This document shows, piece by piece, positions 1,935-29,899 of a DNA stretch of 35,420 nucleotides. The position numbers and the translations under genes are program-made. The notes below the pieces were generated by a model. It was not told where the DNA came from. It made no database searches and worked only from the letters and a program-made list of their open reading frames with translations. The stretch comes from a virus. The DNA is taken from UHGV virus genome UHGV-0075595. One strand, written 5' to 3'. The stretch's first letter is position 1, and the number at the start of each line of letters is the position of its first letter.

Positions 1935-4397
1935 TCAATTCCCTGTTAATTGCAAAACTTGCTCTTCCAGCTTTTTAACCCTGCGTCTCATCATCGCAGA
2001 TTCCAGAATCAGAGCCTCTTCATAACGGATACCGTAACATTCACCAGCCTCGACGGCTTCGCGTACCAGAACCTTTGTCTGTATAAGTGGGTAAACTCCT
2101 GCAGAATGCTCTTCTTCCGTCACATCCCTGTATTCTGCCGGGGTCTCATTCCACTTGTCATAACAGATAAATGCCAGTCGTGACACATCTATGCCTTCAT
2201 TCTGAAATACACTGATAACATGCTGCGCAACTGCACCAAAGTGCCATCTTGCTCCGTCTTTACCTTTCACTTCGATCCTGTCAAGGTACTGGTATGAAAC
2301 CCATTCCACTCTTTCCCATGCGTCCAGTATTTTCTCATCAATAACCTCTGGAGCAGTCTTGAAACGCGCATCGGACAGCACCGTAAACGCTGACTGGGTA
2401 AATCCCCCCGACCATGCACGACCAGCCAACCCAAGAGAATAAGTATTCGTTGTCGATGGTGTCATGGCTGAATCAGAAAACTGTATATATTCTGAATTTC
2501 CAGTAGATATTCGAATATTTCCATTTATTAGCGACATAGTGCCTTTAGTATTATCACTATTGAATAATTTCAATTGCGAACTTATACCGCCTCCCACAGC
2601 CAGAGATACATCGCCTTCAGCAAGCATTCTGAATTTATCTGCAGAAACAAGCGTCTGGTTAGCAAGGTTAAAATATTTAACCCACCATTCAAAACGCCCT
2701 GACATAGTCCCAACGTACTGACCAAGCGCAGGGACGTGAACAACATTGCTATTTGTAGTGCCGTCTATACTGGAAATACCAGTCACCGCTGATGCAGAAC
2801 TCAGAATATTATTTCTGTCACCCGGATGTTTAATTTCAACAAAGTTCCTGATACACCCTTCCTCGAAGGTAACCACGCCGGAAGAACTATACATGGGGAA
2901 TATTGACGCATAATTACTGCGTGCAGCATCTAAGAAACGAATGGTTGTAGATGTCTGCAGATCTCCTGATTCATTTTTCCCATCACACCCAGTCATTAGA
3001 ATATTACTGGCAATATTATTATTTCCCTGAACGGTGACTCCGTGCGCCTGCTTTGCGTCCGATTCAGAGTAATCAACCAGCACATTCGAAATCAGGTTAC
3101 CAGTCCCCTTGCCAACAACTACTGCGGCGTATTTTGGGTTGTTAGCCATTACACTGCTAATGATATTATTCGTTGGGGCAGTTTCCGTCTCAGTTCCATT
3201 GTAAACAACGTGCTGACACTCTTCACCAATAACATTGCTGACAATGTTATATTTTGCTGCTGTTTTAAGTTCCACTGCACCAAACTGAGGATAATTTCTG
3301 GCTATCACACCATCAATTAGCGTATTTTGCGATGAATCAAAAAGCACACAACCTGCTTTTTTATTATTTGCGAACCCTAAATACTCTCCTCTTATATCTC
3401 TAACAATGTAACCTGACGGAATACCATTATTCGGATAAGCGATCAAGCTAAATCCTGTTCCTCGCGTATTTGTAAATCTGATATTTTTAACCGATACATC
3501 ATGGCCACCTGAAAATGACACCTGGTGTCCCTGCACACTATCATCTGATTTATTTCCCATAATTGTTAGCGTACTAAGCATGCCACCATCGGGCATGTTA
3601 AAAACCAGATGATTACCATCTCTGTCATACTGTTTTATCGTTCCCCCACCTGTTCCGTACAAGCCACAACGTGAAAGAGAAACTAAAGATGTATTGAATA
3701 CCCCTTCCGGAACAAAAACACTGCTAAACGAATGTAATGATTTTGTAAAAGCATCCTTGTTATCATTTAAGATTCCATTTTGAGCTCCAAAATCCTTAAT
3801 GCTGACACCATCACGCATCTTATCCTGGAACGTTCTGTATACCGCTCCAGAACCATACTGAATAAACCAACCAAAACCACCAATAACTCCGGCGATTGCA
3901 GCATCGACATAATTACGCATTGAGCGATTATTTACAGCGTCCTGCTCAAGTGATGGATCGGCAAGGTTAGATATTCTGTTTTGCTTTGCATCGTAATATT
4001 TTGCAAGCAAAGATGGTTTCATCAATGCACGTCTGAACCACCCAAAACATCGCTGGATCAGCATCGTCAGGTAGTCAAATGCATCCTCATGAACTTCGGG
4101 GAAAAATTTTCCCTGATTGCGAAGATCAGTCTCCTGCACCACATCAAGCACACGCTCTATCGTGATTCGCCAGCCAGCAGCAAGCGGCGACGGAAGAACC
4201 ACTGCACCGCCACTATAAGTTCCCGCCCCTGTTACCGTATAACCAGCATCCAGCACTAGTTTTGTAACGTTACCGTTAAGGTCAGACACCTGAACAACCA
4301 GGTCGGATTTTTTGAAAATACGGAAGGTATACGGAAATGATGTCGTAACGCCGTTACCTGTGTATTCGTTGTGGTCAACTTCGGTTGAGACCGTCAT
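1935..4397 (-). CDS. Tailspike / tail fiber with N-terminal particle-binding domain, central right-handed beta-helix (depolymerase-like) and C-terminal intramolecular chaperone (peptidase S74-like) domain
   Basis: 820 aa; N-terminal YTGNGVTTSFPYTF motif; central repetitive N/G/S/V-rich beta-helix-like region; C-terminal LSDARFKTAPEV...WHFGAVAQHV...ICYDKW motif; GGAGA RBS. Confidence 0.85.
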   Translation of the reverse strand: MTVSTEVDHNEYTGNGVTTSFPYTFRIFKKSDLVVQVSDLNGNVTKLVLDAGYTVTGAGTYSGGAVVLPSPLAAGWRITIERVLDVVQETDLRNQGKFFPEVHEDAFDYLTMLIQRCFGWFRRALMKPSLLAKYYDAKQNRISNLADPSLEQDAVNNRSMRNYVDAAIAGVIGGFGWFIQYGSGAVYRTFQDKMRDGVSIKDFGAQNGILNDNKDAFTKSLHSFSSVFVPEGVFNTSLVSLSRCGLYGTGGGTIKQYDRDGNHLVFNMPDGGMLSTLTIMGNKSDDSVQGHQVSFSGGHDVSVKNIRFTNTRGTGFSLIAYPNNGIPSGYIVRDIRGEYLGFANNKKAGCVLFDSSQNTLIDGVIARNYPQFGAVELKTAAKYNIVSNVIGEECQHVVYNGTETETAPTNNIISSVMANNPKYAAVVVGKGTGNLISNVLVDYSESDAKQAHGVTVQGNNNIASNILMTGCDGKNESGDLQTSTTIRFLDAARSNYASIFPMYSSSGVVTFEEGCIRNFVEIKHPGDRNNILSSASAVTGISSIDGTTNSNVVHVPALGQYVGTMSGRFEWWVKYFNLANQTLVSADKFRMLAEGDVSLAVGGGISSQLKLFNSDNTKGTMSLINGNIRISTGNSEYIQFSDSAMTPSTTNTYSLGLAGRAWSGGFTQSAFTVLSDARFKTAPEVIDEKILDAWERVEWVSYQYLDRIEVKGKDGARWHFGAVAQHVISVFQNEGIDVSRLAFICYDKWNETPAEYRDVTEEEHSAGVYPLIQTKVLVREAVEAGECYGIRYEEALILESAMMRRRVKKLEEQVLQLTGN

Positions 4398-4501: not shown

Positions 4502-4516
4502 TTACCTTTCAGGTAA
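4502..4516. promoter_or_regulatory. Operator-like palindrome TTACCTTTCAGGTAA (member of ATTACC-N5-GGTAAT family)
   Basis: Perfect inverted half-sites; identical 17-mer TATTACCTTTCAGGTAA also at 23570..23586; lies between divergent tailspike and SOS-gene starts. Confidence 0.55.
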
Positions 4517-4571: not shown

Positions 4572-4593
4572 TTATTGCATGGAGAAGATTAAG

Positions 4594-4851
4594 ATGCAGC
4601 AGTATCACTATCCACTGGAAGAGGGATTTACCGAAAGGATTCACACGCCGGGAGGCGTCAGGTCACTGGTGGAGGGATCGCACTTGATGAAATTACTCCG
4701 GGATCTCGATAAGGATGGATTTAATGTCGATGGCCCACTTGCCGAACTGACTGCACTGATTAACTACGTCACCAGCTCACAGATGTCTATGCAGGATCTG
4801 CAAACACATCTCGACTATTGTGCCGAACAATTACGAAAACAAACCAGATAA
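4594..4851 (+). CDS. Small protein (85 aa) paralogous to the C-terminal domain of the downstream AntA-domain antirepressor; putative SOS-induced immunity modulator
   Basis: GGAGAAG RBS 6 nt upstream of ATG; shares a colinear motif series with the C-terminus of ORF 5169..5825 (IH-[ST]P-[GS]GV ... LM-LL ... DG-V-G ... ELT ... [DI]LQTH--Y); LexA box in its promoter. Confidence 0.55.
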   Translation: MQQYHYPLEEGFTERIHTPGGVRSLVEGSHLMKLLRDLDKDGFNVDGPLAELTALINYVTSSQMSMQDLQTHLDYCAEQLRKQTR

Positions 4852-4854
4852 GGT

Positions 4855-4897
4855 TTGAAATTACCAAATGGAGTGCTTATATTTACCTTTGCGGTAA
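4855..4897 (+). promoter_or_regulatory. Sigma70-like promoter (TTGAAA-17-TATATT) with operator TTACCTTTGCGGTAA overlapping -10/+1
   Basis: -35 at 4855..4860, -10 at 4878..4883, palindrome 4883..4897 with extended arms ATTTACC/GGTAAAT. Confidence 0.5.
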
Positions 4898-4924: not shown

Positions 4925-5010
4925 AGTAATCGGGCACTGGCAAAATCCAGTGCCGGGATTGGTCTCCCGGATTACTAAGTGGCGCATACCACGCCAGACG
5001 TGGTTTTTTT
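4925..5010 (+). ncRNA. Candidate structured leader / small RNA upstream of the antirepressor gene (nested hairpins ending in an intrinsic terminator)
   Basis: Hairpin GCACTGG-N6-CCAGTGC (4934..4953), CCGGGA-N6-TCCCGG (4953..4970), outer pairing AGTAATCGGG/CCCGGATTACT, then terminator; track ORF here starts with TTG and has no RBS. Confidence 0.3.
4988..5010 (+). terminator. Rho-independent terminator (ACCACG-ccaga-CGTGGT followed by T7)
   Basis: 6-bp GC-rich stem, 5-nt loop, T-run; sits between promoter at 4855 and antirepressor ATG at 5169. Confidence 0.55.
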
Positions 5011-5168
5011 ATGCGTATAGCACAGTCATGCCAGAATTATGGTGGGCTGAATGGGGGTCCGAAAGGACGCCGGTACCACTTAGGCCGGTAAGACCAACTC
5101 CGTTCAGTTCACCACCATCTGATTGGTCTCAGCGGTGGTGATGTAATTCGCTAAGTGGAGACGCCATC

Positions 5169-5825
5169 ATGAACGCTCAACTCATCCCCGTATTCAACGG
5201 CACTATATCTAACGAAACAGCCCTACTTTGTAATGCCCGCGATCTGCACGCTTTTTTAGGTGTTAAAAAGGTGTTTGCAGCATGGATTACAAATCGCATA
5301 TCAGAATACGAATTCATTGAAAATCAAGACTATATTTTGCTTTCCAATTTGGGAAAGCAAACATCTGGTAGAGGCGGCCACAACCGCAAAGAGTACCACC
5401 TCACCCTTGATACAGCCAAAGAGCTGGCGATGGTCGAGCGTAACGAAAAAGGTCGCCAGGTGCGACGCTACTTCATTGAATGCGAGAAACGTTTAAGACA
5501 ACAAGAAACAAAAGTGGAGAAGGTCTTGTCAGGCTTCATGCCCGCCATTATGGAGGCGATCAAGCTGGAAGACAAAAAAGAATACAGTGCCCCACTGAAG
5601 CCCGGCTACCGCAGCCTGATTCACTCGCCGTCTGGTGTTCTCGGCCTGACGGAGAACTCACTGCTGATGAATCTGCTGAACCAGTTACAGGACGACGGGC
5701 ACGACGTATCGGGCGCGGCGGCGGAGCTGACCACCATGTTCTGCTACATCGTTGGTGTGAGCAAATGCCTGCGTGATATCCAGACGCACGCGGAGTACAT
5801 CAACGACAAGGCAGGGTTCTTCTGA
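5169..5825 (+). CDS. Antirepressor, AntA-domain N-terminus plus C-terminal domain shared with ORF 4594..4851
   Basis: 218 aa; N-terminal LIPVFNG...[10 protein letters not shown]...[22 protein letters not shown]...[33 protein letters not shown] matches AntA-type antirepressor domain as recalled; GGAG RBS. Confidence 0.65.
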
Positions 5826-5869
5826 CGGGCGGCGGCACAGGGATGTGCCTTTAAATAATTCTGTACAGA

Positions 5870-5912
5870 TTGCAGACTGGGGGTGAATAGCGTACTATTA
5901 CCTCAAGGGTAA
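5870..5912 (+). promoter_or_regulatory. Sigma70-like promoter (TTGCAG-17-TACTAT) with operator TTACCTCAAGGGTAA overlapping -10/+1
   Basis: -35 5870..5875, -10 5893..5898, palindrome 5898..5912; same promoter-operator architecture as 4855..4897 and 29857..29899. Confidence 0.5.
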
Positions 5913-5971
5913 GAAAGCATTTTTAATCTTCCCTTCAAAACGCGTCCTGTAGCCAAACATGGGAGGACGAA

Positions 5972-6604
5972 ATGAGAACAAATACAACAAGAAAAGCGAT
6001 GCCATACATTATCCCAGAAGCAGATTTCGATAGAAAACTGAACATGTCTGAGAAGAACACTAGTCACACCGAAAGCTACTTAGCGAAAGGTGTGGTTGAT
6101 TTCGTTCTTCCGGGATTCACAACACCTTATGGTTATCGCCTTGTAAAATCTTGTAATGGCGATCATTACAGAATGATTACTACCAGCGATACTCCAGAAA
6201 CGGTGTATGCGGTTAAGTTAATCTTTCGGGAAGATATCGTCGAAGCCAAAAGAACATGTACGCAGATCATGGTATGGCGTACGCCTAATGTTATTCATGA
6301 CCGTGCTGTTCATGGTTTGCCTCAGATTTTTTTTCAGTTCTTCCTAGAGCAATATGCGATCGTTGTATCTGATGAGCAACAAACAATCGATGGGAGAAGA
6401 TTCTGGGAAAGAATGATTTCTTGGGCTATAAACACCCCAGGATATAATGTATACGTTTCAGATGGCTCTGAAGAAGATAGACCTCTTAGCTTCATGACAT
6501 CATGGGATGATTTCTATAGCCAGTGGGCTGATTTCTGTTGGGGCAGTGATAAAGATGTGCATACCCACAGACTACTGGTTATAAGCAAAGATAAACTGCA
6601 TTAA
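5972..6604 (+). CDS. Hypothetical protein (210 aa), cargo gene of unknown function in the immunity-like island
   Basis: Strong GGGAGG RBS 5 nt upstream; own operator-controlled promoter and own terminator; no family recognised. Confidence 0.6.
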   Translation: MRTNTTRKAMPYIIPEADFDRKLNMSEKNTSHTESYLAKGVVDFVLPGFTTPYGYRLVKSCNGDHYRMITTSDTPETVYAVKLIFREDIVEAKRTCTQIMVWRTPNVIHDRAVHGLPQIFFQFFLEQYAIVVSDEQQTIDGRRFWERMISWAINTPGYNVYVSDGSEEDRPLSFMTSWDDFYSQWADFCWGSDKDVHTHRLLVISKDKLH

Positions 6605-6609
6605 TAGAA

Positions 6610-6630
6610 GCCCGCAGCGCGGGCTTTTTT
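6610..6630 (+). terminator. Rho-independent terminator (GCCCGC-agc-GCGGGC followed by T6)
   Basis: Perfect GC stem immediately after stop of 5972..6604. Confidence 0.7.
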
Positions 6631-6702
6631 GTGGACGAAACAAAAGTCAGTGCTACACTCATTGACGCCACATTGAGGTGGCTTATAGATGGAAATTTCA
6701 CA

Positions 6703-6864
6703 ATGAAAAAAGCATTTGCTGCACTGTTCGTTTTGTTGTCTCTGGTAGCTTCAACTCAGGCCTTTGCCGGTCGTTGTCAGCACGACAGCGACACTGCTGC
6801 TGACGGCTCCCGCTGCGGTGGGCGTTCTGCGGATTCCCGCCCGGGTGGCGGTGGCATTCGTTAA
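6703..6864 (+). CDS. Candidate small secreted peptide (53 aa; signal peptide MKKAFAALFVLLSLVASTQAFA then Gly/Arg/Asp-rich 31-aa region with two Cys)
   Basis: In-frame ATG inside track ORF 6631..6864; possible promoter TTGACG-16-TATAGA at 6662..6689; weak RBS, so uncertain. Confidence 0.25.
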   Translation: MKKAFAALFVLLSLVASTQAFAGRCQHDSDTAADGSRCGGRSADSRPGGGGIR

Positions 6865-6895: not shown

Positions 6896-7276
6896 TCACG
6901 CAACGCAATTATTACCGCGCCATGTAACATTTTTAATAATCTTATCAGCACCAAACTCAACGTAAACAGAGCAACTGAAATGGAGTGTATAACCGCCATC
7001 AGTTGTTGCGTATGTGTTTGAATATATAGTATTACCAATTAGATTAGACGTAGTATTATACGTTGTGGTTTGTGGTACGTTATAACTACCAGAGCTTGAG
7101 TAAACATACACTCTGTTTCCATCTGGAGATGTAAGCTCTCCCTGAGGATACCCCCACTGCTGAACCATTGCGTCTATACTCTGCCCGCGCCACGTAAGCA
7201 TATTTCTTTCAAACTGTGCAGCTGACTGGCATCCAACGAGAAGCATAAATCCAAAAATCAAAAATACTTTTCTCAT
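6896..7276 (-). CDS. Lipoprotein (predicted), last gene of late operon; possible superinfection-exclusion/surface protein
   Basis: Start at internal ATG giving MRKVFLIFGFMLLVGC lipobox signal; AGGGGT RBS; mature part T/S/N/Y-rich. Confidence 0.55.
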   Translation of the reverse strand: MRKVFLIFGFMLLVGCQSAAQFERNMLTWRGQSIDAMVQQWGYPQGELTSPDGNRVYVYSSSGSYNVPQTTTYNTTSNLIGNTIYSNTYATTDGGYTLHFSCSVYVEFGADKIIKNVTWRGNNCVA

Positions 7277-7323
7277 AATTACCCCTATCATGGAAAAACA
7301 GCACCAATCCACAAATTAACTAG

Positions 7324-7512
7324 TTATTTTATTATTCTTCCGAACAATACAATTCCGAATACTACAAAGCCGAACCATGCCGCTGCACGCAACAGAGATT
7401 CCAATTGAAACCCATTTTTATCAAAATGTATGAATAGCATAAAAACGCTGCACATATTAGTACAATAAAAGTTATTTGAACCATCATATCTCCTTTTATT
7501 GCGGAGTGACAT
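7324..7512 (-). CDS. Small hypothetical membrane protein
   Basis: 62 aa with C-terminal hydrophobic helix; weak RBS, overlaps end of upstream gene. Confidence 0.25.
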   Translation of the reverse strand: MSLRNKRRYDGSNNFYCTNMCSVFMLFIHFDKNGFQLESLLRAAAWFGFVVFGIVLFGRIIK

Positions 7513-9970
7513 CCTGTGGTCGCCACCAGTATGTCTGGTTAAACTCTTTCTTCGAACGTTGCTCCATTTTACGCAAATAGCCTGGTGAAAAATACTCCTG
7601 CATCTGGTTAAAGATCATGTGATCGAGAGCCGCCTTCAAGTACCAGAGATTCGCACCAGGCATCAAACCTTTCCCCAGCTTCACCAGATCACCACCAGTC
7701 TGCTCACTCTTCCCTTCCACAGCATTTAACGGTATGCCCTGAGCAATCTTCACTACGTCATCAACCAGACCAGCTACCGGGCCAAGCATCGACGCCAGCG
7801 CGCCGCTTCCGTACCTAGTGTGATCTGACAATAAAAAGTCACCGTAAAGGCCAAGACCACCACCTTTCAGTAGAGCACCAAGCCAAAATTTAGCAGCATC
7901 TTCTCCTGTCATCTCGCGAGGATTACGACCAGACGCAAGGTCGTTAAGTTGCTGCGACAAAGCGCCAAGAATGGTCGTACTGGCAATAAACGTCGCAATA
8001 TATGCCGCACGCCCACCAGCAGACGGCATACCCATAGCGCGTGACCAGTGACGCATAACCACCGAGATAGGGAACGATTTAAACAGGAAAACACTTCTCG
8101 TTAATTCACCTTTCCATGTTCCACGCTGAATACCAGAACCGGTTATCAGTTGCTCACGTGCTCCCGGTGTAATAACAGCCATATCAACTTCTTCAGTTAC
8201 GGCACCGAGCAGTTTACGCATTGCCTCAAATTTCACGCGTTCAGGCTCACCAAGATGTTTAACTGCTGAATCAGGGATACGCATAATGCTTTCCGGTGTC
8301 AGCATCGTATTATTGCCGTTCCCCCAGTCCTCCTGTTGCGCCAGCTTCCATACGCTCCAGTCTGTGTCAGTAATCCCTTTGCTTTTCAGGATACGAAAAT
8401 CAGAATCATCGAGGCTACGAAGGTCTGGTGTCCGTGACACTACTTCTCCCAAGCTTCCCATCATGGTTACGCCATAGGCGCGCTTGTGCGCATCTGACCA
8501 TGCTGTAAGCCCACTGGCACGCATTACCGCCGTTGCAGCCCAACGAGACACAGACGGCCCCATATTATCCATCGCCCAGCGGTTAACGCTGCCAAGTAGA
8601 GATTCCATCGCCAGACCAGCGCGGCGCGCCCGCGCAAGTTCTGTACGGTTCGTTGGGTCCATAGCTTCAAGCTGGTTGCGGAATAACTGGTTCATTGGAA
8701 GGTTGGTAACCTTCGCAGACAGATACATGGTTCCAAGATCAGAGAACGATGACAGCAACGCGGATCCGAGTCTGCTGGCAACCAGCCAGTTGCGGATATT
8801 GTCAGACCATCGCGCGATGTGCGGATTCGCTACAGGCTGTGTCTTTCCGGAAATAAAGTTGTACAGATTCTCTGTGTTGTTCGCCAGCCGCTCGACTTTA
8901 CCGGTTTTACTCGGGTTAGCTGTTGCCGTTTCTGCCTTCACCTGATCAAGAAGAGAGCGGAAAACATGATCGGGGTTTGGGCCATATGTTTCCACCAGTG
9001 CAATATCTTTACTGATACCTTCCAGGTGACCGACCATGATTTCCCATAGAGAGCGATCGCCATAAAGTTGCTGATATTGAAGATAGGAATCTGCATCTTT
9101 GAAATGTATCTGTCGTGATGCATTACCACGGTTAGCACGTGCGCCGGAAATTCGCATTCCGGTATCAGTAAGCTTATTCAACCCACCAGTAGCGATCGTG
9201 TTATAAGCCTCTCCAAGAAATGCAGACAACTCGGCATCGTTCATCAGTTGTCCATCGGCTCGGGTATAATATTTGCGATCCAGCTTACCTATAACATCGC
9301 TAACCCATTTATCTTTTGATACCGCCCCAACCTTTTCCATAGAATGATGTTGAGGGATCCCCCAGTTTTCGAGATAGCCAATGTCCCCACCAGCATCATT
9401 AAACCGGCGGCGCAGCAGCTCTGTAACTTCTCTCCACGCCTTAGCACCTTTTCTTGCTTTAGCATTGCCAGTATTTTGCCCCCGCATTTCATATACCAGG
9501 TCACGTACGCCAGCTTCATCTTCAAACAGACCAAAAAAGCGAGGATCAACTGCTTCGAATGCCTCCTGCAATTGACTCAATGCATAATCACGGGTGGCTT
9601 TTGTTCTGGATTCAACAGAGAGGAAATTCGATTTACCGTCTGCATTAAAAGCAATAGTACGGTTAAGAGCGCCAAGTTTCCCATCAGCCCCTTGATAGCT
9701 ATTGATAAATTTATCCAATCTCTGACGTGCGGCTATAGTGAGGGCCACACGACGTTTCTTTAATGCCGCTTCTCGCTGTAATTCTTCAGATGCCAATTGT
9801 GCTGCACGATATAGCCGCTCTGATTCGGAAAGTTGTCTCCACGACATCGGGTCATCACGAGCAATAGAGCGCATATTTCGATAAATGCGGTCTTCAATGT
9901 TCTGTATTTCTCGCGCCGTTAACGTGCGCTGCGCCGCCTGCTGGACCGCTTGTATACATTCCTGTCTCAT
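7496..9970 (-). CDS. Large internal virion / ejection protein (824 aa)
   Basis: Position in late operon after tail genes, analogous to T7 gp15/gp16 core proteins; no catalytic motif recognised. Confidence 0.55.
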   Translation of the reverse strand: MRQECIQAVQQAAQRTLTAREIQNIEDRIYRNMRSIARDDPMSWRQLSESERLYRAAQLASEELQREAALKKRRVALTIAARQRLDKFINSYQGADGKLGALNRTIAFNADGKSNFLSVESRTKATRDYALSQLQEAFEAVDPRFFGLFEDEAGVRDLVYEMRGQNTGNAKARKGAKAWREVTELLRRRFNDAGGDIGYLENWGIPQHHSMEKVGAVSKDKWVSDVIGKLDRKYYTRADGQLMNDAELSAFLGEAYNTIATGGLNKLTDTGMRISGARANRGNASRQIHFKDADSYLQYQQLYGDRSLWEIMVGHLEGISKDIALVETYGPNPDHVFRSLLDQVKAETATANPSKTGKVERLANNTENLYNFISGKTQPVANPHIARWSDNIRNWLVASRLGSALLSSFSDLGTMYLSAKVTNLPMNQLFRNQLEAMDPTNRTELARARRAGLAMESLLGSVNRWAMDNMGPSVSRWAATAVMRASGLTAWSDAHKRAYGVTMMGSLGEVVSRTPDLRSLDDSDFRILKSKGITDTDWSVWKLAQQEDWGNGNNTMLTPESIMRIPDSAVKHLGEPERVKFEAMRKLLGAVTEEVDMAVITPGAREQLITGSGIQRGTWKGELTRSVFLFKSFPISVVMRHWSRAMGMPSAGGRAAYIATFIASTTILGALSQQLNDLASGRNPREMTGEDAAKFWLGALLKGGGLGLYGDFLLSDHTRYGSGALASMLGPVAGLVDDVVKIAQGIPLNAVEGKSEQTGGDLVKLGKGLMPGANLWYLKAALDHMIFNQMQEYFSPGYLRKMEQRSKKEFNQTYWWRPQDVTPQ

Positions 9971-23481: not shown

Positions 23482-23571
23482 ATCAATGACTCCGTACGCA
23501 ATTAAATTATTACCAATTTAACCACATATGATTTATTTATCGTAGAAGGTTGACATTTAACGCGTGAATTA

Positions 23572-23586
23572 TTACCTTTCAGGTAA
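23572..23586. promoter_or_regulatory. Operator-like palindrome TTACCTTTCAGGTAA in the late-operon / tRNA control region
   Basis: Identical to site at 4502..4516; preceded by TTGACA (23550..23555) and AATTAT; half-site TTACCAATTTAACCA at 23510..23524. Confidence 0.55.
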
Positions 23587-23908: not shown

Positions 23909-23985
23909 GTGGCATTAGCTCAGTTGGACAGAGCAACCGCCTTCTAAGCGGTTGGTCGCAGGTTCGAATCCTGCATGCCACGCCA
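23909..23985 (+). tRNA. tRNA-Arg (anticodon UCU, reads AGA/AGG)
   Basis: Manually folded cloverleaf: acceptor GTGGCAT/ATGCCAC, D-stem GCTC/GAGC, anticodon stem ACCGC/GCGGT with loop CTTCTAA, T-arm GCAGG-TTCGAAT-CCTGC, discriminator G, encoded CCA. Confidence 0.85.
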
Positions 23986-26717: not shown

Positions 26718-26732
26718 TTACCCCTGAGGTAA
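26718..26732. promoter_or_regulatory. Operator-like palindrome TTACCCCTGAGGTAA overlapping RBS of gene 26370..26714
   Basis: Perfect half-sites; 62 bp from site at 26780. Confidence 0.5.
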
Positions 26733-26779
26733 TTAAAAACCACATAAGACACGAAATCAATAGATTTTAGAATATTTTA

Positions 26780-26794
26780 TTACCTCATAGGTAA
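26780..26794. promoter_or_regulatory. Operator-like palindrome TTACCTCATAGGTAA downstream of P-like gene
   Basis: Perfect half-sites with ATTACC/GGTAAT extension; adjacent weak hairpin plus T7 run on minus strand. Confidence 0.5.
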
Positions 26795-28795: not shown

Positions 28796-29026
28796 TCATG
28801 AGTAGAAGAAGTATGCCAGTTCCGCTTTTGAGCGCAGCCATTGTCTTGTTTTACAGGCTTTAAAAAGCCCATTCATCAATACCTTACCTGGCATTTTGCG
28901 CTTACCTGTTAAGTGAGTCTGGATATAGTGACTCGTCGTTCCGGCTTCCTGTGCGAAGGCTTCACGCTCATCCGGAGTAAGTGCAAGCCAGTGCTTTTTG
29001 AAATCGAAATGTCCGTTATCGCTCAT
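28796..29026 (-). CDS. Cro-like HTH regulator
   Basis: 76 aa; helix-turn-helix-like AFAQEAGTTSHYIQTHLTGKRKMP; divergent from repressor gene across operator cluster. Confidence 0.45.
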   Translation of the reverse strand: MSDNGHFDFKKHWLALTPDEREAFAQEAGTTSHYIQTHLTGKRKMPGKVLMNGLFKACKTRQWLRSKAELAYFFYS

Positions 29027-29062: not shown

Positions 29063-29125
29063 TCACCCATAAGGTAACAAAAATCAAGGATAGTTACCTA
29101 TGGGGTGCATTTACCTGTTGGGTAA
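29063..29125. promoter_or_regulatory. Immunity operator cluster (three sites: TCACCCATAAGGTAA 29063..29077, TTACCTATGGGGTGC 29094..29108, TTACCTGTTGGGTAA 29111..29125)
   Basis: Three related palindromes in the 154-bp gap between divergent Cro-like and repressor genes; first two are inverted near-copies of each other. Confidence 0.6.
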
Positions 29126-29180: not shown

Positions 29181-29765
29181 ATGAAAAGTATCCAGGACGT
29201 CCGCAGGCAAAATCTCAACGACTTGATCGACCGTGAATTCAATGGTGTTCAGACGCGGATGGCAGAAAAACTTGGAACTCAGGCAAATCTGGTAAACCGC
29301 TGGGCTCTTGGCAAGAAGGTTATCGGCGACCAGGTTGCGCGAAAAATTGAAGCTGCCGCCAATAAACCCCGTAACTGGCTTGATATCGATCGCTCGCTTT
29401 CTCAGGAAGGTTTTCAGCCTGTCGGCCCAAGCGACATTGGTCAGCTGGCAGCTCACAACCTGGAACGCTGGATGAGTGAAAGCCGCGACCTTTCAACTCA
29501 GGGAAAACTTCACCGCGCATCCGGCGTCGCCCAGGTGACAATCAGTCGCCTGTTAAACAATGAGGTCAGCGTTTCCATTTCCACCCTGGAGAATGTTGCA
29601 TCCGCATTCGGGCGTCACGGATATGAACTACTGATTCACCCGCACGACCCTGCGACTATCAACTATGACCGCTCGCGCTACGCATTGTTACCCGAAACCG
29701 AGAAAGCAAAGATCGAAAGTTACATTGAATTTGTCATCAACCAGAACGAAAAAAACAAACAATAA
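29181..29765 (+). CDS. Repressor with tandem XRE-type HTH domains, no recognisable LexA-like S24 autocleavage domain
   Basis: 194 aa; two HTH-like segments (MAEKLGTQANLVNRWALGKK... and LHRASGVAQVTISRLLNNEV...); followed by strong terminator. Confidence 0.6.
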   Translation: MKSIQDVRRQNLNDLIDREFNGVQTRMAEKLGTQANLVNRWALGKKVIGDQVARKIEAAANKPRNWLDIDRSLSQEGFQPVGPSDIGQLAAHNLERWMSESRDLSTQGKLHRASGVAQVTISRLLNNEVSVSISTLENVASAFGRHGYELLIHPHDPATINYDRSRYALLPETEKAKIESYIEFVINQNEKNKQ

Positions 29766-29822: not shown

Positions 29823-29899
29823 TTACCTAATGGGTAATTTTTTTAACTCATATCTATTGACATCAAACCAAATACGCATAATTATTACCTCAACGGTAA
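29823..29899 (+). promoter_or_regulatory. Left-operon-like promoter (TTGACA-17-AATTAT) flanked by two operators (TTACCTAATGGGTAA 29823..29837; TTACCTCAACGGTAA 29885..29899)
   Basis: -35 at 29857..29862; operators 62 bp apart centre to centre; downstream operator overlaps -10/+1. Confidence 0.55.

Follow-up and report, generated by a model that had tools for sequence, protein, structure and literature searches.

Several described systems share parts of their design with the locus analysed here, a single open reading frame (ORF 5972..6604) of the virus genome UHGV-0075595, whose full stretch of 35,420 nucleotides (nt) is called the window below. Temperate phages carry morons, which according to Hendrix and colleagues are reportedly units of promoter, gene and terminator set between the operons of the phage; in their classical form they are expressed in the lysogen. 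The immI region of P1 and P7, in which a C4 antisense RNA precedes the antirepressor, is adjoined by a C1-controlled kilA-repL unit. The GCN5-related N-acetyltransferase (GNAT) superfamily includes the type II toxins TacT, AtaT and KacT, which acetylate transfer RNA (tRNA). In the podovirus epsilon15, the RefSeq record NC_004775 annotates ATTACC-N5-GGTAAT palindromes as 'repressor' sites. These surround the repressor gene, precede the resolvase gene and the late genes, and also lie beside the tail-fibre gene.

The sequence of the 210-amino-acid (aa) protein encoded by ORF 5972..6604 is already in the databases as a hypothetical protein, and its type of operator is annotated in epsilon15. New are the remote, model-based assignment of a large Pfam-less family to a GNAT-like fold, the spread of this family across phages, plasmids and chromosomes, and the position of the gene as cargo in a fixed promoter/operator/terminator slot whose contents are exchangeable. 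The arrangement is unlikely to surprise a phage specialist, and the interest lies in the uncharacterised family.

The slot, its cargo and the repressor operator

The cargo gene and the signals around it are the following.

5834..5849, + strand: hairpin GGCACA-GGGA-TGTGCC just past the stop codon of the antirepressor gene ant (-10.1 kcal/mol; invariant in five sister prophages)
5870..5898, + strand: putative slot promoter read from the sequence, TTGCAG (5870-5875), 17-nt spacer, TACTAT (5893-5898)
5898..5912: operator TTACCTCAAGGGTAA, a palindrome of the epsilon15 repressor-binding type, overlapping the -10 element and start-site region
5943..5969, + strand: predicted leader hairpin pairing GUCCUG with the Shine-Dalgarno (SD) region
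5961-5966, + strand: ribosome-binding site GGGAGG, 5 nt before the ATG
5972..6604, + strand: cargo gene, 210 aa, ATG start, PHROG 1349, predicted divergent GNAT-like fold
6609..6630, + strand: intrinsic terminator identified by folding, AGCCCGC-AGC-GCGGGCT and then a T-run, bounding the slot on the right

An earlier note, made from the letters of this DNA alone, had described the gene as an independent transcription unit with its own operator-controlled promoter and terminator, transcribed against the flanking late operon. All the individual elements were found, with the terminator at 6609..6630, and the orientation is confirmed by the gene strands: the ORF is antiparallel to the tailspike gene (1935..4397, - strand) and to an 824-aa gene (7496..9970, - strand). 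The terminator hairpin has a folding energy of -17 kcal/mol (z = -2.8; none of 200 shuffles was equally stable), and six U come after it. A consensus terminator scan missed this textbook hairpin, so the negatives of that scan are untrustworthy. The promoter hexamers match the consensus at 7 of 12 positions and are absent from the output of the promoter scan, whose threshold is 9/12. On this count the hexamers alone are no better than chance, and the site may act as a modest sigma-70 promoter.

These signals belong to the slot. The 73 nt at 5840-5912 match most of 326 E. coli records; the cargo gene is found in 93, and about 230 matching records are without it. Five sister prophages, each with a different cargo, were aligned. 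Their left flank is invariant from where ant ends to the operator's last base, and divergence sets in directly after it; among the prophages with other cargo, homology picks up again precisely at the hairpin of the terminator, which leaves 5913..6608 as the cargo. The promoter, the operator and the terminator are fixed parts of a conserved slot and not of the cargo gene, so what stands of the independent unit is a single gene framed by promoter, operator and terminator; the frame is not the gene's 'own', since it holds other cargo in the sister prophages. The hairpin at 5834..5849, in the conserved left flank, is a weak terminator of the upstream antirepressor gene. The five cargoes are listed here.

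This window: the 210-aa gene
Strain E7: a 211-aa protein, 30% identical to the 210-aa protein (E 2e-17); this allele is present in 13 genomes
H10407 (enterotoxigenic E. coli): a gene pair of 72 and 125 aa
ECCNB12-2: a gene pair of 55 and 146 aa
TL-2011b: a 59-aa gene overlapping a YafO-family toxin gene

The slot is therefore a fixed frame in phiV10-like prophages for swapped cargo, which may be the 210-aa gene, a distant paralogue or toxin-antitoxin-like pairs. Two sister prophages show variations of the frame. The cargo-specific leader of the E7 paralogue (L085, 3071-3215) holds a second exact operator, TTACC-CTAAT-GGTAA (TTACCCTAATGGTAA). A 7-nt deletion in the H10407 spacer (L086, ~3035-3045) would disable TTGCAG-17-TACTAT and places TGTACA 18 nt from the -10 element.

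The gene resembles a moron in being a single gene of foreign composition (40.8% guanine plus cytosine (GC) against 49.1% for the window), framed by promoter and terminator and set against the late operon. It differs in that promoter, operator and terminator are fixed in the slot while the cargo is swapped, and in that the promoter carries the operator of the prophage repressor.

The operator is one of many. TTACC-N5-GGTAA occurs in the window as nine exact and three one-mismatch copies against 0.53 expected, and none of 100 shuffles reached 12. The copies are distributed as follows.

4502, 4883 and 5898: three sites in the accessory region
23572: one exact copy at a TTGACA promoter at about 23551
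26718-26794: two sites before the Holliday-junction-resolvase gene
29063-29125: three sites spaced by 24 base pairs (bp), with a degenerate central copy, between the repressor gene and a cro-like gene (28796..29026, - strand)
29823-29899: two sites at a strong TTGACA-17-CATAAT promoter (PL) into the recombination genes

The two pairs, at PL and before the resolvase gene, are each spaced exactly 62 bp, which may permit cooperative binding or looping. At 4883 (TTGAAA-17-TATATT), at 5898 and, on the reverse strand, at 26718 (TTGATT-17-TTTAAT), the last T of the -10 element is the first T of the palindrome. The operator hence covers the -10 element and start-site region.

The presumed operator binder is the prophage repressor (29181..29765, + strand; 194 aa), an HTH_3 protein without an S24 peptidase domain. 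The phiV10 repressor and ORF21 of phage vB_EcoP_ZX5 both match it at 100% identity. Overexpression of ZX5 ORF21 lowered endolysin and holin transcripts by more than 99.9%, supporting a repressor role, in a study that left the operators unmapped (PMC9782041). In a comparison for heteroimmunity, the phages bearing the slot promoter all shared this repressor at 98.5% identity or more. The palindrome at 5898-5912 is very likely an operator of the epsilon15 repressor type that belongs to the prophage's main repressor. Because the same palindrome flanks the repressor gene and is annotated in epsilon15, it is reasonable to predict that the cargo gene would be off in the lysogen and on at infection or induction. 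The earlier note had made the same prediction. The likeness to the epsilon15 regulon lies in an identical palindrome at equivalent positions. The differences are that epsilon15 is without an ant module or a cargo slot at that site, that the two repressors are only 42% identical and that the epsilon15 sites are annotations.

A second layer of control may act on translation. In the minimum-free-energy fold of 5905-5985, the SD region is paired in the hairpin 5943..5969, the z-score of which is only -1.2. In 17 of 18 homologue contexts, a strong GGAGG is preceded at 8-14 nt by an anti-SD, CTCC or GTCC, with which it can pair, so that an SD-occluding hairpin probably travels with the family gene and further dampens its translation. 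In Yersinia, Photorhabdus, Serratia and Mixta the leader also has a hairpin resembling a terminator, which shows compensatory base changes and a U-run, and could be an attenuator. The conserved order over about 120 nt upstream of the gene (L004, L006, L016-L026) is a promoter-like box, the terminator-like hairpin, GTCAGAAGTACTCCG and the SD. An Rfam search of the homologue leaders matched no family, and no LexA boxes were found upstream of the homologues.

Family, predicted fold and distribution

The earlier note had recognised no family in the protein, and curated resources agree. Pfam and NCBIfam searches gave no match, the PADLOC-DB 2.0 defence models gave no family at E up to 1, and PHROG 1349, which residues 1-210 cover over profile positions 1-210 of 210 (E 3e-113), is labelled 'unknown function'. 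Literature searches by accession and by PHROG number, and on prophage defence by GNAT proteins, turned up nothing on the family. Two prophage defence papers considered in this context concern unrelated proteins, one with an ATPase domain and the other the HEPN protein HepS.

The family is large. Its close members fall into 63 clusters of about 210 aa, all from Enterobacterales and all named 'hypothetical' or 'phage protein'. When the profile search was run exhaustively, E values up to 1e-3 were reached by 913 clusters at 50% identity, 279 of them with E up to 1e-10, and nearly all of the 913 are single-domain proteins of about 200 aa. The family signature, [ST]-D-x2-Q-[TS]-x2-G-x-[RK]-[FM]-W, lies at a strand-loop-helix junction. 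Across 142 diverse members, the conserved polar residues are N29, Y79, Q98, W102, R103, D134, Q137, T138, G141, W145, Y161 and D164. A Pfam scan of the 142 members found no common family and only isolated fusions. The rare fusions (P0153, P0143, P0135, P0142) involve the N-terminal zinc domain of MqsA (E 3e-20), DUF5397, a weak SAD/SRA match (E 0.002) and an unidentified 300-aa N-terminal region. Two multi-domain relatives had no PDB match, and sequence searches of the PDB with both family profiles gave nothing meaningful.

The fold was modelled with AlphaFold2. The mean predicted local distance difference test score (pLDDT) was 79.8 with 34 sequences and 91.5 with 142 sequences (predicted template modelling score 0.84), and the order of secondary-structure elements is identical in both models. 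The first model (34 sequences, pLDDT 79.8) served as the Foldseek query. All 50 PDB matches listed have the GNAT fold (best E 3e-3, probability 0.97; template modelling (TM) scores 0.3-0.47). The resemblances include NatD/Naa40 (4ua3), AAC(2')-Ia (5us1), EctA and HAT1, and KacT, TacT3 and AtaT are among the weaker matches listed. Against viral models, full-length uncharacterised phage proteins (TM 0.66-0.71) are followed by proteins named 'Acyl-CoA N-acyltransferase' or 'NAT_SF'. The modelled fold is thus similar to GNAT proteins and to practically no others, and the searches made gave no homology to structural or housekeeping proteins. Like GNAT superfamily members, the modelled protein is a single domain of about 200 aa, and it has a conserved strand-loop-helix motif with an invariant Gly and adjoining conserved acidic or polar residues. 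The models point to a divergent GNAT-like fold with a conserved polar pocket that fits no curated GNAT family.

Of the 93 complete E. coli genomes in which the window's gene was found, 92 have it intact, with 99% identity or more, and it is annotated there as a coding sequence. Homologues occupy the following contexts.

Lambdoid phage LLS: after the lysis genes, 84% identical
Serratia siphovirus-type prophages: between the tail chaperone and tape-measure genes, beside P22-type Ant and Arc
Citrobacter P1-like phage-plasmids: between baseplate genes and sit
An Enterobacter Rep3 plasmid: homologue present
47 plasmids of Aeromonas, Shewanella, Pantoea, Photobacterium and others: homologues present
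Photorhabdus chromosome: between a phosphotransferase system IIB gene and hda
Xenorhabdus chromosome: between ppc and metF
Proteus chromosome: between thiD and pagP
At least 14 species of Enterobacter, Leclercia, Lelliottia, Silvania and Huaxiibacter: between MmyB-like regulator and nitroreductase genes

The family gene is solitary in all of the roughly 20 distinct contexts examined, with no partner or antitoxin-like neighbour in any of them. The median ratio of nonsynonymous to synonymous substitution rates (dN/dS) is 0.046 in the Enterobacter group, 0.089 in Photorhabdus, 0.10 in Xenorhabdus and 0.24 in Proteus. Judged by position and substitution pattern, the chromosomal copies are single, vertically inherited, fixed at genus-specific positions and under strong purifying selection. 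Since they are solitary, fixed and of low dN/dS, the product is probably useful to cells outside the phage life cycle and partner-free. A few truncated copies occur in other genera (L066, L072-L074). Morganella homologues that follow a filamentous-haemagglutinin gene raised the idea of contact-dependent inhibition immunity. It was rejected, as there is no VENN motif, a terminator follows the haemagglutinin gene and the homologue has its own upstream region. On the Shewanella plasmid pHD6416-NDM (L089, 5280-7292), the homologue has a hypothetical gene of about 190 aa on either side, and an S24 peptidase/Y-family polymerase (umuDC-like) pair lies just downstream of it.

Candidate functions

The reading that best accommodates these observations, and one to be held tentatively, is that of an early-expressed, repressor-gated and translationally damped accessory gene, whose product would be a stand-alone GNAT-like acyltransferase acting on a common enterobacterial target. 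On this reading, the ORF was acquired horizontally and occupies a cargo-exchange slot directly downstream of the module formed by isrK, the C4 RNA and ant. The slot supplies the promoter, one operator over the -10 element and start site, and the terminator. The prophage repressor would shut the gene off in the lysogen, and transcription would begin at once on infection or induction, together with that of ant. The leader hairpin over the strong SD would further damp translation. The product, with cofactor use and catalysis predicted, would then act alone as an acyl, probably acetyl, transferase, and its target would be a small molecule or protein common to Enterobacterales cells. Under such a scheme, phages would borrow a generally useful cell-modifying enzyme for their early phase, rather than a dedicated anti-immunity factor.

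Several observations weigh against this scheme. On the side of regulation, the slot promoter matches its consensus weakly, the spacer is shortened in one sister prophage (H10407) and a lone operator may repress only partly. On the side of enzymology, the Pfam scan of the 142 members found no acetyltransferase model even at E up to 1. An hhalign comparison with a RimI profile gave a probability of 0.16%, which is a weak negative because that profile, built from the 120 best homologues, is narrow (82-87% identity). The canonical coenzyme A motif A, Q/R-x-x-G-x-G/A in the beta4-alpha3 pyrophosphate loop, is absent from the 210-aa protein. Its look-alikes are Q137-T-I-D-G141-R-R143, which is one residue longer and ends in Arg, and R111-A-V-H-G115-L-P117, which is poorly conserved. 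The nearest motif, S/T-D-x-x-Q-T-x-x-G-x-R/K-F-W, may be the counterpart of GNAT motif A or of motif B.

If the protein is an enzyme, a large acyltransferase-like family lies outside curated resources, although many mobile elements of Enterobacterales carry it and chromosomes have kept it. Naming its target would then annotate hundreds of 'hypothetical proteins' at once. A wider proposal, considerably more speculative than the reading for the single gene, is that the family (at least 913 clusters at 50% identity) is a widespread new group of GNAT-fold enzymes. Its members would be stand-alone immediate-early effectors with which temperate phages, phage-plasmids and plasmids modify a conserved part of the host by acylation, would have been domesticated in several enterobacterial genera and would be delivered through a dedicated repressor-gated slot that also takes toxin-antitoxin cargo.

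The earlier note had favoured an anti-defence, takeover or second anti-immunity function. An early effector of this kind, an acetyltransferase-like protein that would be produced within minutes of infection or induction and would inactivate a component of host immunity or of a competing prophage, is unlikely, though several features suggest it. The operator-controlled promoter is co-regulated with the adjacent antirepressor, two alleles just 30% identical share one slot in sister prophages, as in arms-race genes, and the family is common on phages, phage-plasmids and plasmids. There is also a precedent in AcrVA5, a GNAT-fold anti-CRISPR that acetylates Cas12a. However, the protein resembles no known anti-defence protein, so that the proposal is without homology backing. 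It also sits poorly with the purifying selection seen in Enterobacter, Proteus, Photorhabdus and Xenorhabdus: fixed single copies between housekeeping genes in many species (dN/dS 0.05-0.24) are hard to explain, because conserved chromosomal copies ill suit a factor that helps phages against the host.

A defence, exclusion or abortive-infection toxin, in the form of a silenced GNAT-like protein resembling TacT, AtaT or KacT and freed when repression is lost, is improbable. In its favour, KacT, TacT3 and AtaT are among the Foldseek matches listed, and other occupants of the slot are toxin-antitoxin-like pairs, including the YafO toxin. The layered control by operator, SD-occluding hairpin and, in other genera, a terminator-like leader would suit a toxin, as would an Arg codon usage in which 10 of 14 codons are the rare AGA. 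The known toxins differ from the 210-aa protein, however, in having an adjacent antitoxin, which is missing here from every context examined, and an Acetyltransf_1 signature. There is no PADLOC match at E up to 1, the stable solitary chromosomal copies speak against strong toxicity, and repression in the lysogen would be the wrong state for lysogen protection.

Equally improbable is a GNAT-like protein without catalytic activity that serves as a regulator or an immunity-type factor by binding a partner protein or a ligand such as acetyl-CoA. The absence of canonical motif A is consistent with it, as is one relative fused to the toxin-binding N-terminal domain of MqsA. Yet the conserved polar set of D134, Q137, T138, R103, Q98, N29 and D164 resembles an active site more than a binding surface, although this is suggestive only.

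That the ORF is no functional unit, whether a chance frame, the fragment of a decaying gene or a phage gene for structure or housekeeping, is effectively refuted by the conservation data, the few truncated copies in other genera notwithstanding: the gene is intact in its relatives and not a pseudogene, matches PHROG 1349 over its full length (E 3e-113), shows strong purifying selection, is at least 99% identical in 92 E. coli genomes, belongs to a family of nearly constant length (63 close clusters and at least 913 at 50% identity) and has no structural-protein homology.

Host prophage and neighbouring genes

The earlier note had placed the gene where P22-type phages carry immunity or exclusion genes, an assignment that the prophage does not bear out. 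The identical region in E. coli AR_0086 lies beside yfgI, and its genes code for a core protein of the T7 gp14 family, large internal virion proteins and a tail fibre. Phage ZX5 integrates at the guaA site (PMC9782041), for which yfgI is the expected flank. The AR_0086 gene content and the phiV10 repressor thus indicate a prophage of the phiV10/epsilon15-like (Uetakevirus) type and not a P22-like one. Neither Arc nor Mnt is present in the prophage, unlike in a P22-like phage, where mnt-arc-ant and sieA lie between the injection genes and the tailspike gene. The module upstream of the slot consists of the following features.

4855..4897, + strand: sister promoter and operator (TTGAAA-17-TATATT, then TTACCTTTGCGGTAA), predicted to drive isrK, the C4 RNA and ant
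4934-5010, + strand: isrK, an Hfq-binding small RNA (Rfam gathering-level match, 67.7 bits)
5035-5119, + strand: C4 antisense RNA, RF01695 (Rfam gathering-level match, 61.2 bits)
5169..5825, + strand: ant, AntA/BRO-type antirepressor gene, upstream of the cargo gene

The operator at 4855..4897 implies that the same repressor site governs the neighbouring ant module, so that ant would be under the control of the isrK and C4 RNAs and of the main repressor's operator. As far as its layout tells, this is a c4-ant module like that of P1/P7 immI in an epsilon15-like podovirus prophage, rather than a P22 immI. As in P1 and P7, a C4 antisense RNA precedes the antirepressor, the promoter bears the operator of the main repressor and a further repressor-controlled unit follows. 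The differences are that the cargo gene is unrelated to KilA or RepL, that the host is a podovirus of the epsilon15 group and that an isrK-type small RNA is also present. Another operator (4502-4516) lies upstream of a 90-aa ORF (4579-4851, + strand; phrog_450). This ORF is a homologue of the antirepressor's C-terminal part and also matches Ant residues 135-216.

The exact operator at 23572 covers the -10 region of the TTGACA promoter (23551-23586, + strand), about 340 nt upstream of a tRNA-Arg(UCU) gene (23909-23985, + strand). A rare-codon phage tRNA may therefore be under repressor control. The AGA usage of the cargo gene (10 of 14 Arg codons) and this tRNA make a link suggestive only, because low GC content alone could account for the codon bias. 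With the ant module, the cargo gene and the promoter upstream of tRNA-Arg all predicted to be gated by the epsilon15-type repressor, the palindromes outline a concrete regulon in common E. coli prophages.

Two further genes lie between the slot and the late operon. A 53-aa signal-peptide protein (6703..6864; phrog_14503, 'membrane associated protein'; WP_000708858) is conserved in the sister prophages. It has its own promoter, TTGACG-16-TATAGA (region 6663-6864, + strand), which is without an operator, and it is for this reason possibly expressed in the lysogen. A 138-aa ORF (6896-7312, - strand; phrog_3716, unknown function) has a lipobox-like LVGC and a GC content of 40.3%, and is another moron-like gene.

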